A stretch of 60,375 nt of DNA, counting the filler, from Thelocarpon superellum (Eukaryota): the NCBI GenBank assembly GCA_026025795.1. It is 2 parts of 2 records of this genome, joined end to end, with 100 filler letters (N's around TTAATTAATTAA, not from the genome) between each part and the next. Parts side by side here need not be neighbours in the genome. Positions count along the whole stretch, not along the records: positions 1 to 30,147 come from JAPEUG010000207.1; 1 more part is not named here. One strand, given 5' to 3'. Below, piece after piece: positions 6,279-60,375 of the stretch. Every line of letters begins with the position of its first letter. Position 1 is the stretch's first letter. Under the pieces are notes generated by a model. That model saw only the letters and a list, made by a program, of their open reading frames with translations, ran no database searches and had not been told where the DNA came from. The translations under genes were made by a program, and so were the position numbers.

Positions 6279-6360
6279 GCCCAGTTAGCTCAGTGGTAGA
6301 GCGAGAGATTGCAGCCGGCAACCCATCTCTAGGTCGTTAGTTCAAGTCTGACACTGGGCT
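6279..6360 (+). tRNA. tRNA-Cys(GCA) with a 10-nt intron
   Basis: Acceptor stem GCCCAGT/ACTGGGC with U73 discriminator and D-arm GCTC/GAGC. Anticodon stem AGAGA/TCTCT with loop TT-GCA-G[ccggcaaccc]A. T-arm GTTAG-TTCAAGT-CTGAC. T-runs downstream fit a Pol III terminator. Confidence 0.93.
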
Positions 6361-14167: not shown

Positions 14168-15399
14168 ATGGCTGCTCATGGTGCAGACGTACCGGCGTGC
14201 AAAGTAGTCCTCCCTGGCACCGTGGCAAAAGGTCTCCTCGCCGAGGTGTCCGAAGGGCTCGCGAAGCTGGCCCGGCCGCCAATACTGGTAGGCTTCCTGG
14301 CGAATGATGACCCCGCTGCACGCATGTACGCCGACTGGACGGGGCGGACGTGTCGAGAGAAGTGAGCATCTCGTGGACCGTGGTCCCCCCCTTGGAGACA
14401 GATGCTGACTCCTCTAGTGGCTTTCGCTTTGAGCTGCGCCAGGTCGACCGGGAGGAGCTCGAGGAGCACCTCTTGACGGCGAACAAAGACGACGGTGTAG
14501 ATGGCATCATCGTCTACTACCCCATCTTTGGGAATCGGCAGGACCAGTATCTACAGTCGGTGACGGACGTGAGCAAAGACGTGGAAGGACTGAGCCATCG
14601 ATACATCTTCAACATGTATCAGAACATTCGCTTCTTGGACGGAGAGCAGATGCAGAAGAGCATCCTGGTAGAGCCCTGTTCGCCTTCCTCCTCCATCATC
14701 CGCGCCTGACCAGACGAATCGTCTAGCCGTGCACTCCGCTTGCCGTGATCAAGATCCTCGAGCATCTCCGGATCTATAACACCATCCTGCCGTACGGGAA
14801 CCGCTTGTTTGGGCACACCATCACCGTCATCAACCGATCCGAGGTCGTCGGCCGACCGCTGGCGGCCTTGCTAGCCAACGACGGGGCATGTGTGTACTCG
14901 GTCGACGTGGCCGGGGTGCAGCAATTCTGCCGCGGTGAGGGCATCAGGAAGAAACGACATGACGTGACGGAGAAGCCGGGGTGGCGACTGAACGAGTGTC
15001 TGCCGTTGTCCGACGTCGTCATCAGTGGCGTCCCGGGCGACTCCTTCCAGGTACCAATCGGGCTGATCAGGGAGGGTGCCGTGTGCATCAACTTCTCCAG
15101 CCAGAAGGTAGGCGACGAACGGGCGGCATGCGCGGTCGCACCGGTTGACGAGGGTGACAGAACTTTGCGCCCGAGGTTAAGGAGAGGGCGTCCATCTATG
15201 TGCCGGCGATCGGGAAGGTGACCATCGTGGTGTTGCTCCGTAATCTGCTGGTAAGCATGTCTGGTCTCGCGCGTCGCGATTGGCGACCTCAATCATGGCG
15301 CTGACGGCAGTGCAGAGGCTCGTCCAGAACCACGGGGAGAAACGTGGGTCGCCGAGGGTGGAGGCGCCCGGGGATGCGACAAGAGTCGAGGCGTCATGA
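14168..15399 (+). CDS. MTD1: NAD-dependent methylenetetrahydrofolate dehydrogenase, 4 introns
   Basis: Has GFLANDDPAARMYADWT, DGIIVYYPIF, QDQYLQ, KDVEGL, ILPCTPLA and INRSEVVGRPLAALLANDGA. Confidence 0.93.
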
Positions 15400-15593
15400 C
15401 GCGGGCGCAGGCTCGGACACAGGCAGCAGGGAAGGCGACAGTGATCCACGAAGATAGGAGAGAGAAGGAAACTTACGCAACACAACACGCAAGCAACGCT
15501 ACAGGACAGGTAGGGGGCCATGGTCACGGGCAGAGTCACGCGGGCGTGGGTGATTTCCCCGGGACCCGCGAGGTTCTAGTCAGGATAGATATA

Positions 15594-16024
15594 CTGAAAT
15601 AAACCCAGCTTCTTTCGAGGTCCCGGTAGGCTTGGCCTACTGGGCGGAAAGGACCCTCGGGTGTGCCTCGAATTACGTCGGTACGGCTCCATCGGGCTTC
15701 GGCCCGGTGGACACCCGGATCGGCAGGAGTAAACAAACAGCTGTGCGGGGGTGCACACTCCACAGCTGGGAGTTTCAGAACGCCATCAGCGGGGACCAGA
15801 TCCCCAGCTAGATGGCCGACGCTTTTGCCTCCTCATCCTTTGAGCTGTTTGGGTTGCTTGACGGAGCGGGCGCTCGCCCTTTTGCCCCCAAGGTGCTCCC
15901 GGACGAGGCGCTGTCTTCTCGTCCTCGAGACGTGTGACCTTGTCGGAGAAGGCATTCTCTTATGCCCGCGAGATGCTCCCACTCAATGCCTGACATATCG
16001 GCCTGGCCCTCAGCTGTTGGTGAT
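15594..16024 (+). ncRNA. Candidate structured non-coding RNA of unknown family
   Basis: At least 6 closely packed stems, including a 10-bp stem capped by C(UUCG)G. The G-U pairs form only on the + strand. It lies between convergent MTD1 and RPF2 and has no convincing ORF. Confidence 0.5.
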
Positions 16025-16187
16025 GTAAGTGATGGTGGTGGTGGTGGTGATGGTGGTGGTGGTGGTAGTGCTGTACGGTCAGCAGGTGGTCGGTTCGAGA
16101 CTCGGCGAGGGAGGTTTCTTTTTCAACTTTTTCAACTGTTTTTCGCCACAGGTGGTGCCAGAGGCATGGAATCAGACGGCTCGTGCC

Positions 16188-17364
16188 TCATAGAGCTCGC
16201 ACTCGTTTGGCAGCTGCGCCTGTGTCTAAGTCATTTTCGTCCGCCACCAGCGTCATGGCCTCTGCATCCAGCCCTCCATCCTCATCCCCATCTTCGTCCC
16301 CTTCCATATTCCCCTCGTCATCCTCACCCTCCCGCTCCTCCAAGTCCGCCCGCGCTCGCTTCAATCCCTTCATCTTCCGCGTCTGCAGCGTGCCCAGATC
16401 CTGCCGTCCGAGATGGATCCGTCCCACCTTGTCGCCCATCAAGTCCGTTTCGATGTTCTTCTTCGTTCTCGGCTAGATGGGACGGTAGTTAGCCATGCTG
16501 GTCGGTCGGCTTCTCGTGGGGTGGAACGACGTCACATCACGTACCTCGGAAGTCTTCCCTTTGCGCAGGGCCTCCTTCATCATGTTCTCCTCGGCCTCTT
16601 TGACGCGGCCGATGCGAAAGTCCATGCGCGGACCCATCTCCTCGACCTCGACCCGCGGTAGTCGCTGCCCGCTCTTCTTGGTCTGGATCAGGTACATGCG
16701 CAGATGCACGGGCGGACCTTTCTCGCCCTCGCCCTCCTCCCCGACCGTGACGGCGACGAGATACCGCAGACCCTCGACGTCGATCGTGTTCGTCTCGTGC
16801 CCGCGGAAGAAGTCGGATAGGACGGATTGGAGGAGGGTGTAGGGCGTCGGGGTGGGCGAGTCGAAGGCGGTGCCGGCGAAGAGGAGTAAAGGCTTCAGAC
16901 CAACGGCCGGCTTGGGTGTCTTGAACTGGCCAAAGGTGCGAAAGGTATCGGGGTCGAGGTAGAGCTCGAGCATGTCGAGGACTTTGTGGTCGAAGGTGCG
17001 CACAAAGGTGAGGCAGTGCGGTCGCTTCTTGCTGTGGGCGCCGAACACGATGAGGCTGGCGTCGTTTTTCTCGGAGAAGAACTCGAGGCTGGTGGCGTCC
17101 TCGAAGGGATGGATGGGATTTTTCTTGGTGAACTTGATGGACAGCGGGCGTTTCAGGGCATGCAGGTCGGTCATGGCCAGCTGGACAATCTGCGATGCCG
17201 TGCTGCCCCGCAGGAGGAGGGTCCGTTTGGCGTGTTCGTGCACCTGCGGCGCTTTCTTCTCCAGCGCTCGCTTCGAACGCGCATTGCGCGGCTTGCTGGG
17301 GACGGATCAGCCCAGCCTTTGCTTTTTCCGGGACTTGCCATGTCACTTACATTTGCCGCAACAT
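16188..17364 (-). CDS. RPF2: Brix-domain 60S ribosome biogenesis protein Rpf2, 2 introns
   Basis: Starts MLRQI|KPRNARSKRALEK. Has KKNPIHPFED, EFFSEKND, HSKKRPH, LPRVEVEEMGPRMDF and IHLGRQDLGTLQTRKMKGLKR. Confidence 0.95.
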
Positions 17365-29206: not shown

Positions 29207-29464
29207 GTGGGCGTGGGCGTGGGCGTGGGCGTGGGCGTGGGCGTGGGCGTGGGCGTGGGCGTGGGCGTGGGCGTGGGCGTGGGCGTGGGCGTGGGCGTGG
29301 GCGTGGGCGTGGGCGGGGGCGTGGGCGTGGGCGTGGGCGTGGGCGTGGGCGTGGGCGTGGGCGTGGGCGTGGGCGTGGGCGTGGGCGTGGGCGTGGGCGT
29401 GGGCAGGGGCGTGGGCGTGGGCGTGGGCGTGAGTGTGGGCGTGGGTGTGGGCGTGGGTGTGGGC
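29207..29464. repeat. (GTGGGC)n hexanucleotide array, about 43 units
   Basis: Read directly. A few variant units (GGGGGC, AGGGGC, GTGAGT, GTGGGT) occur, mostly at the 3' end. Confidence 0.97.
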
Positions 29465-30147: not shown

Positions 30148-30247
30148 NNNNNNNNNNNNNNNNNNNNNNNNNNNNNNNNNNNNNNNNNNNNTTAATTAAT
30201 TAANNNNNNNNNNNNNNNNNNNNNNNNNNNNNNNNNNNNNNNNNNNN
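30148..30247. other. Assembly gap: 100-nt N spacer containing a TTAATTAATTAA linker
   Basis: 44 N + TTAATTAATTAA (30192-30203, stops in all six frames) + 44 N. Confidence 0.95.
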
Positions 30248-59107: not shown

Positions 59108-60375
59108 CTGTGGCAGGATGGTCGCGGCCCTTTAAGGTTGACTATGCCAAACGGATGGATGAAGGTGCAGAGGAAGACAGGCACAGTGGCCGGTGGCAGG
59201 TGTCGGAGTTGTTGAAGCAAACGAAAGTTGTGTGCGGAGTTCCAGCCTCCAAAGCGAATCAACGCGGGTGAGGCAAGTGAAGGGTGATGTCGAGACCGGC
59301 CTGCGACCAAAACAACCCGGGGCTCTCAAAGTAAAAAGGGTAAAGGAAAAAGGCCAGACGACCGGGGACGCTGGTGGTGACAGCAACAGGTTTGAGGTCG
59401 GCGCGGGATGGGAAGGATGGAGGGAAGGGAGAAGGTAAAAGAGGGAGGGGTGCTGTGATTCAAGCACCGGAACAGCGGCGGTGGAGTTGATGCGAAGCGT
59501 GGTCGGAGAAAGGGACCTGGGTGCCGGGCGGGTTAAAGAAGGCTACGTTTGAGAAGGGTCAGGGCGGGTGGGCGGCTGTAAGAGATCGGAAACCCGCAGC
59601 GAGCTGCTTCGGGGGGGAGGGCAAGCGTGCGAGGATGGGAGGGGGGGTGGACTACCGGGGTGACTTGGTCTTCCTTGGCTCGCTGGGGCCACCGAGGCCT
59701 CCTTGGGGTGGCGCGCTGGTGTCGACGCGGGCGGATTGAGCGGATGATTGGGTGGACGATCGGCCCACTCGTGGAGCAGCCCGTTCCATGGCCGACAAGT
59801 GGGCCATTTTTAGGGGTTGTTCGGCCACGCCCAACCCGCCGGCGCGCCCATCCTCAAACAGGCGCCAGGGGAAGATTGCACGCTGAGGAGCGCGAAGCAG
59901 GGAAGGCGAGTGCGCAACCGTGGGACTAGAATTCTGCCATACTTAGAACAGCTGGCAGGTCACAGGTCGGCCAGTCGCCTCGCTGGCGCCCCGCCCCCGC
60001 CTCTCTCTCTCCCCCCTCCCCTCCTCCACTTCTCCGCCGCTTTCTCTTGCCCCCCGGTTTTTCTCCCGGTTCGCGTTCGGCTGGACTGAGCAGGGGAGGT
60101 GGGAGAGAGCTTCGCGAGTCCGCGCGCGGCTTGTCTCTCACTTGCCTCAAGCGGACGAGTTACGAGCGCAGCCGAGCGGCCTCGTCCACGTTTCTGACAT
60201 GGGGGGTTGTTCCCCGGTCGCTGAACGGACCGGACGATATGACCATCACGACAGCTAGCACTCTGCTCTGCATTCACCACGCAAGACCATCGCGACTTCG
60301 GTCTACTCCTTTTGTCCTTTTGCTCCCCTGCGACCATGTCGAGCGGCGCCGTGCTGGCTGAGCGGGAGGAGGGCT

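Follow-up and report, generated by a model that had tools for sequence, protein, structure and literature searches.

Stable stem-loops, absent from sampled relatives, in the spacer between the convergent MTD1 and RPF2 genes of Thelocarpon superellum

Few structured RNAs of fungi lie outside the classical families, and to our knowledge none acts on polyadenylation. RNase III (Rnt1) fail-safe terminator hairpins lie downstream of yeast poly(A) sites and are capped by AGNN tetraloops, and fungal MITEs are small elements with inverted-repeat ends that are polymorphic for presence or absence between lineages and fold strongly on both strands. The covariation-defined structures of fungal 3' UTRs and intergenic regions described by Gao, Jones and Rivas 2021 (PMC8216456) are the closest published analogues of the locus studied here. 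In the sections of that paper used here, four Pezizomycotina intergenic structures, standalone and outside Rfam, are listed; the definition of each structure is based on significant covariation, over sets of 59-875 genomes; and two Saccharomycotina structures, GLY1 (four stems around a junction) and MET13, are placed inside the 3' UTR by RNA-seq. The cluster of stem-loops found in Thelocarpon superellum shares with the structures in these sections a multi-stem build, a size of 120-190 nt, the lack of an Rfam family and a position behind or between fungal genes, a likeness that, for the Pezizomycotina structures, could in principle extend to identity. As no homologue of the cluster was detected, covariation cannot be scored, and membership among structures of the PMC8216456 type is not claimed.

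The spacer and its stem-loops

The cluster lies in the 788-nt spacer between two convergent genes, MTD1 (+) and RPF2 (-), in fungal nuclear DNA with short introns and a GC content of 0.586 over the window (the whole 60,375-nt stretch of DNA that was analysed). Matches to Pfam PF00763 and PF02882 identify the upstream gene as encoding an MTD1-type NAD-dependent 5,10-methylenetetrahydrofolate dehydrogenase, and the MTD1-like protein matches PDB entry 1EDZ (E 3.3e-38). The downstream gene carries a Brix domain (Pfam, E 2.6e-44), and all eight of its PDB matches are RPF2 chains (best E 7.8e-84). On the + strand, a motif scan found a TATA-like TAGATATAC at 15586-15594 followed by AATAAA at 15598-15603, 199 nt beyond the MTD1 stop. 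Together these motifs are likely the MTD1 poly(A) signal; alternatively, the TAGATATAC site may be a TATA-like element serving a downstream unit. On the opposite strand, an A-rich block 44-73 nt beyond the RPF2 stop is likely the poly(A) signal region of that gene.

The remainder of the spacer is made of simple or duplicated pieces, among them a (GGT)n microsatellite at 16015-16068 and a weak 22-nt repeat at 80-nt spacing, a composition that fits DNA grown through duplication and slippage. A B-box-like GGTTCGAGACT lies at 16092-16102, with three T5 runs after it on the + strand (16119, 16128 and 16139). These runs are the RPF2-side A-rich block read on the - strand, and a tRNA or SINE reading of the box and the runs was set aside, as neither ARAGORN nor Rfam finds a cloverleaf. 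The heptamer CCCAGCT occurs three times within 206 nt (at 15604, at 15764 on the - strand and at 15803) and 15 times in the 60-kb window, where 9.4 copies are expected; the first two of the three copies make up the closing helix of a 185-nt domain, and the third forms part of hairpin 4, on its 3' side.

Six inverted repeats had been described here in an earlier note, and all six are in place (Table 1), as are the enclosing CGGGTGT/ACACCCG pair, the AAACAA at 15731 and the ACA at 15993-15995. Hairpin 4 had been positioned correctly but drawn without its two bulged A's: the 3' arm actually reads TCCCC-A-GCT-A-GATGGC. The long-range helix proposed between CTGAAA..CCCAGCT and AGCTGGG..TTTCAG also exists. 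This closing helix (strands CTGAAAT / CCCAGCT paired with AGCTGGG / GTTTCAG) is present in the 237-nt fold of 15594-15830, but other pairings displace it in the 405-nt fold. It competes, moreover, with hairpin 3 for positions 15764-15768. The robust structure consists of the local hairpins only. The loops of hairpins 1-4 are UUG, UUCG, a 15-nt loop and CCAGA, and their stems are interrupted by single bulges and 1x1 or 1x3 loops only. A T4 run at 15823 lies just 3' of hairpin 4.

Table 1. Coordinates of the stem-loops and of the flanking features in the MTD1-RPF2 spacer (z values refer to dinucleotide shuffles)
Feature	Position	Strand	Evidence or folding score
MTD1-like gene, stop codon	15397-15399	+	sequence, Pfam/PDB identity
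TAGATATAC, then the sole AATAAA in the spacer	15586-15603	+	motif scan
185-nt domain, split closing helix around three arms	15594-15778	+	MFE and centroid of 15594-15830
Hairpin 1, 10 bp, one G-U pair, 3-nt loop	15622-15644	+	z -3.39 (+), -3.72 (-)
Hairpin 2 (15688-15711, 10 bp, C(UUCG)G loop) with two outer stems	15677-15724	+	
Hairpin 3, 8-bp CAGCTGTG/CACAGCTG stem	15738-15768	+	z -2.67 (+), -1.71 (-)
Hairpin 4, 14 bp, two bulged A's, 5-nt loop	15782-15816	+	z -4.94 (+), -3.92 (-)
Hairpins 5 and 6 and terminal ACA, ordinary sequence	15901-15995	+	z -1.35, +0.02
A-rich block (GAAAAA x3, AAGAAA)	16115-16144	-	motif scan
RPF2, stop codon	16188-16190	-	sequence, Brix domain/PDB identity

Excess stability and strand bias

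When 15594-15830 (237 nt) was folded on the + strand, the energy was -115.2 kcal/mol with a z of -5.00, and on the - strand it was -100.9 kcal/mol with a z of -3.54; on either strand 0/200 shuffles were equally good. The entire 405 nt gave z -2.90 (+) and -2.26 (-), and 200-nt windows over the 3' part gave z -0.33 and +0.80 on the + strand. The hairpins were also scored one at a time, with 200 dinucleotide shuffles each. On the + strand, equally good folds arose in 1/200 shuffles for hairpin 1, in 2/200 for hairpin 3, and in none for hairpin 4 or for the arm at 15677-15724 that holds hairpin 2; the counts were 21/200 for hairpin 5 and 96/200 for hairpin 6, the one before the ACA. The 5' part is a true local structural outlier; the 3' part, with its ACA, is unremarkable. 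The hairpin-dense structured segment proposed earlier therefore stands for its 5' part and not for hairpins 5 and 6, which are at chance level.

The predicted ensembles are well defined as well. For 15594-15830 the + strand ensemble has a diversity of 17.3 (1/80 shuffles as low) and an MFE frequency of 0.023 (1/80 as high), and the - strand ensemble has a diversity of 21.7 (0/80 as low). Well-defined ensembles on both strands are as expected of DNA-level inverted repeats.

As a background we used 590 non-overlapping 200-nt windows from both strands, outside 15200-16200. Their z values had a mean of 0.01 and an sd of 1.14, with 6/590 at <= -3.0 and 4/590 at <= -3.3; the candidate 200-nt windows on the + strand gave -3.31 and -3.30. 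Since z in this comparison and in the second one below was computed with T for U, which removes the special tetraloop bonus from real and shuffled sequences alike, the candidate is slightly understated in both. A second protocol, which kept the best of 6 offsets for 237-nt windows and used 20 shuffles, was applied to the candidate and the 11 best background windows, and gave a z of -6.8 for the candidate, noisy because 20 shuffles only were used, versus -2.06 to -4.09 for the others. The competing top windows were a (GCGTGG)n microsatellite, the pairing of a CT-rich with a GA-rich tract, and coding sequence with a GC3 of 0.79-0.90; by this protocol no other non-repetitive, non-coding segment of the 60-kb window is as structured as 15594-15830. 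The window has no general excess of short hairpins (6 Watson-Crick stems of at least 8 bp vs 6.07 expected; 49 stems of at least 9 bp including G-U pairs vs 47.3 expected), so no genome-wide mutational habit accounts for the cluster.

Two of the competing tracts can be placed more precisely. The (GCGTGG)n hexanucleotide microsatellite spans 29223-29459 and owes its z of about -4.1 to the repeat alone; some 700 nt past it lies a run of N at 30148-30235 (88 N in the window). At about 59900-60220 the CT-rich tract pairs with the nearby GA-rich tract at z -3.7 to -4.1 on both strands, and this has the look of promoter or UTR sequence of low complexity rather than of a discrete RNA.

Better folding on the + strand, which had been noted before, was borne out most clearly by the arm at 15677-15724. 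With three G-U pairs, this arm reaches -30.2 kcal/mol and z -4.82 on the + strand versus -19.0 kcal/mol and z -1.23 on the - strand. Hairpin 3 leans to the + strand and hairpins 1 and 4 fold equally well on either. Over the whole 237-nt fold, G-U pairs make up 7/80 pairs on the + strand and 4/83 on the - strand. A strand difference in z of at least 2.1 is seen in 5.8% of the background windows, so the strand evidence is suggestive only, either way. The + strand folding bias is thus real but modest.

Known RNA classes, coding potential and related fungi

A search of the entire window with Rfam 15 at gathering thresholds returned a single match, a tRNA at 6279-6360. With relaxed filters and E<=10 (1001 nt, then 271 nt), the spacer drew far sub-threshold matches to implausible families only: the best scores were 17.2 bits vs a gathering threshold of 50 and 14.8 bits (guanidine-III aptamer) vs 36, and the others include a CRISPR repeat and a plant miRNA. 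Neither the THF, ZTP and TPP riboswitch models nor any H/ACA family scored at E<=10. The Rfam families covered, none of which came near its gathering threshold in the spacer, include the snRNAs, U3, RNase P/MRP, SRP, telomerase RNA and ribozymes. The absence of a known family, claimed in the earlier note from the sequence by eye, is in this way upheld at both stringencies. Term look-ups in the accessible text of Li and Breaker 2017 (PMC5640933) and of PMC8216456 returned neither MTD1 nor RPF2.

Over 15300-16300 ARAGORN reports 0 tRNA genes and the Rfam tRNA model likewise gives no match; ARAGORN is a weak witness here, because it is blind to the Rfam tRNA at 6279. That tRNA (6279-6360, +) scores 58.2 bits in Rfam, and ARAGORN reports none window-wide. 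Its length of 82 nt suggests that it probably contains an intron, and it has a TATA-like TTATATAG about 35 nt upstream and T4 and then T5 runs just downstream. Inside the 185-nt domain, no A or B box was seen by eye, nor a tRNA-like fold.

The exact C box RTGATGA is absent from both strands of 15400-16190, and the + strand of 15594-15998 holds no copy with 1 mismatch. Two 1-mismatch C boxes on the - strand (15830-15839) would place hairpin 4 in the guide region. Judged by its motifs, the cluster lacks C/D box snoRNA architecture. Window-wide, matches to RTGATGA within one mismatch number 473 vs 323 expected (0/100 shuffles reach 473), an excess that presumably reflects codon usage, the coding sequence being rich in GAT/GAG.

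The segment is non-coding. Its GC content by codon phase is 0.56/0.72/0.55 and 0.59/0.57/0.61, compared with 0.59/0.41/0.84 in the flanking exons, and a Pfam scan of the 4 longer ORFs in or around the spacer gave 0/4 with a match. Codon-phase GC also rules out the small ORFs, such as one of 41 aa on the + strand (15812-15937) and one of 62 aa on the - strand (15996-15808). A possible + strand intron (GTGTGA 15931, CTGAC 15989, CAG 16013) is joined to no coding exon and leads nowhere.

Related loci were gathered by a metagenome scan with an RPF2 exon, and the best 80 of the 154 loci were used. Among these best 80 of 154 the closest RPF2 has 74% protein identity, and MTD1 was seen in 25. It is convergent with RPF2 and directly downstream of it in 18 (L001, L003-L007, L010, L013-L015, L019, L021, L026, L028, L033, L042, L047 and L051); in the remaining 7/25 it has another orientation or is 3-6 kb distant. 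Convergence of MTD1 and RPF2 in 18 loci indicates that the gene pair is old. As a proxy for the spacer we measured from where the RPF2 C-terminal match ends to where the penultimate MTD1 exon ends, two points that could be placed in 17/18 loci. This distance is 245-409 nt in 16/17 loci, 3762 nt in one, and 941 nt in the window. MTD1 and RPF2 nearly touch at their 3' ends in 16/17 measurable convergent pairs, and the spacers are too short for the element; many RPF2 matches end ahead of the stop codon, so that the spacers of the relatives are, if anything, shorter than the proxy suggests.

Other comparisons gave the same picture of absence. When the window was aligned with four relatives, about 15560-16240 fell mostly opposite gaps in 4/4, and the short scattered blocks aligned inside it showed no real similarity. 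A blastn search of the spacer against the best 80 of 154 loci found nothing below E 1.2, and a covariance model of the 185-nt domain matched only itself in 596,732 nt (window and loci). A second copy of the element was found neither in the 60-kb window nor in the best 80 of 154 loci. The spacers of 12 relatives, when folded, gave z values of -1.68 to +2.51 on either strand and are therefore unstructured. This absence across syntenic relatives indicates that the element is not an ancient syntenic feature, and the test for conservation in MTD1-RPF2 spacers that had been proposed earlier has a negative outcome, a weak result given that the relatives are distant: with RPF2 at most 74% identical, absence says little on conservation within the family or genus. 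At this distance, a young functional RNA and a neutral insert look alike in sequence comparisons.

Readings of the cluster and known systems

Four stable, non-coding stem-loops spanning about 225 nt (15594-15818) are thus present here and absent from the sampled relatives. The cluster is not a snoRNA, not coding and not in any curated RNA family. It starts at the AATAAA, most likely the polyadenylation signal of MTD1, and ends about 250-300 nt ahead of the A-rich block that likely directs polyadenylation of RPF2, which would put it in the termination zone between the genes. The reading we favour, tentatively and at somewhat less than even confidence, is lineage-specific, inverted-repeat-rich spacer DNA that lies where MTD1 transcription would terminate and is itself transcribed, at most, by read-through. 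Such DNA may have been gained through insertion or local duplication. With both poly(A) signals active, the stem-loops at 15618-15818 would fall between the cleavage sites, directly downstream of that of MTD1; transcription, if any, would be as the read-through tail of the MTD1 pre-mRNA, and the hairpins could fold co-transcriptionally on the + strand of this RNA. As a secondary effect, the polymerase, or a trailing 5'-3' exonuclease, might be paused or blocked before RPF2. The poly(A) sites, the read-through transcription and any role in termination are what we infer here. Several observations sit uneasily with mere spacer DNA: the + strand bias of the arm at 15677-15724 fits selection on RNA, G-U pairs number 7 on + vs 4 on -, a C(UUCG)G tetraloop caps a 10-bp stem, and the cluster cannot be put down to a genome-wide mutational habit. 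Insertion is not demonstrated, as there is neither a target-site duplication nor a second copy (window, best 80 of 154 loci).

A second reading is a lineage-restricted, small + strand ncRNA gene of about 180-230 nt, with its start downstream of the TATA-like TAGATATAC and its end around the T4 run at 15823. Although this is the strongest structured non-coding segment in the window, with a well-defined fold by its MFE frequency and a C(UUCG)G arm specific to +, we consider an independent gene unlikely: its promoter elements are putative, the TATA-like and AATAAA motifs being more simply read as the MTD1 poly(A) signal, and it has no homologue in the searched sequences (best 80 of 154 loci, 596,732 nt), no plausible Rfam match, no properly placed snoRNA boxes, no A or B box and no tRNA-like fold. 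The sole tRNA gene of the window does carry a similar upstream TATA-like motif and downstream T4 and T5 runs, and standalone structured RNAs of Pezizomycotina outside Rfam exist, going by the sections of PMC8216456 cited above. A cis-acting element of the MTD1 transcript, carried by the nascent RNA or by an isoform with an extended 3' UTR, is likewise doubtful. Here the closing helix would pair part of the AATAAA (15598-15600 paired, 15601-15603 in an internal loop) and, by covering it, would modulate which poly(A) site is used, how stable the mRNA is or how MTD1 transcription terminates. MTD1 adjoins on the same strand, the hexamer is covered by the closing helix in both the MFE and the centroid of 15594-15830, and the passages of PMC8216456 on GLY1 and MET13 describe conserved multi-stem 3' UTR structures in these fungal one-carbon genes, although the authors report evidence against a riboswitch function for both. 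The helix is lost, however, once more 3' sequence is folded, and pairing AGCTGGG with the third CCCAGCT is 18.7 kcal/mol worse (-96.5 vs -115.2), a cost that supports no two-state switch; nor do the relatives have such an element behind MTD1, or the riboswitch models (THF, ZTP, TPP) any match at E<=10. A lineage-restricted + strand RNA of a new class, whether standalone (about 190-230 nt, a four-way junction and a 3' hairpin) or an AATAAA-engaging structure, we hold to be improbable.

A decayed MITE of about 185 bp, with CTGAAA..CCCAGCT and its complement as imperfect terminal inverted repeats, overlaps in part with the favoured spacer DNA and is in itself quite unlikely. With fungal MITEs the cluster shares small size, inverted-repeat ends (6+7 matching bases; short, imperfect and with an unequal gap), presence here and absence at the same site in relatives, and strong folding on both strands. 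Unlike them, it is GC-rich (0.60) and has no target-site duplication in its flanks, TAGATATA and AACGCCAT; neither the 60-kb window nor the best 80 of 154 related loci contain another copy; and its interior is a set of separate local hairpins, not a single long one. Least probable by far is a large H/ACA box snoRNA, which the terminal ACA had suggested. The segment does share the two motifs of that class, AAACAA at 15731 fitting ANANNA and the ACA at 15993-15995 lying one base past the AATGCCT arm, but some 260 nt separate these boxes, and shuffles fold as well as the stem preceding the ACA in 96/200 cases (z +0.02). In contrast to H/ACA snoRNAs, the segment has no hairpin-hinge-hairpin-tail layout, no above-chance 3' hairpin and no covariance-model match, no H/ACA family appearing at E<=10; and strong hairpins with 1-nt bulges and 1x1 or 1x3 loops only offer no pseudouridylation pockets. 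Its architecture (pockets, box spacing, chance-level 3' hairpin) contradicts an H/ACA snoRNA.

If the cluster is mere spacer DNA, as favoured, it shows that conservation is not needed for a hairpin-dense segment of z near -5 to appear in a fungal termination zone, a warning against calling RNA genes from structure alone where the genome is GC-rich. Transcribed as a discrete or regulatory RNA, the cluster would instead be young and lineage-specific, a structured RNA next to a gene of the folate pathway. Were the AATAAA-engaging form true, the structure would govern how the 3' end of a one-carbon metabolism transcript is formed, and would be a eukaryotic analogue of structure-controlled polyadenylation beside the gene of a metabolic enzyme. 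The conserved MTD1-RPF2 pair offers a natural comparison, with and without the insert, for its effect on the termination of convergent genes. Like the Rnt1 terminator hairpins, the cluster consists of stable stem-loops just beyond a poly(A) signal, between genes; unlike Rnt1 substrates with their AGNN tetraloops, its loops are UUG, UUCG, a 15-nt loop and CCAGA. Finally, MTD1 is a gene of one-carbon metabolism, as are GLY1 and MET13 in the sections of PMC8216456 that treat them, and, unlike the 3' UTR structures described there for GLY1 and MET13, the cluster begins at a likely poly(A) signal.
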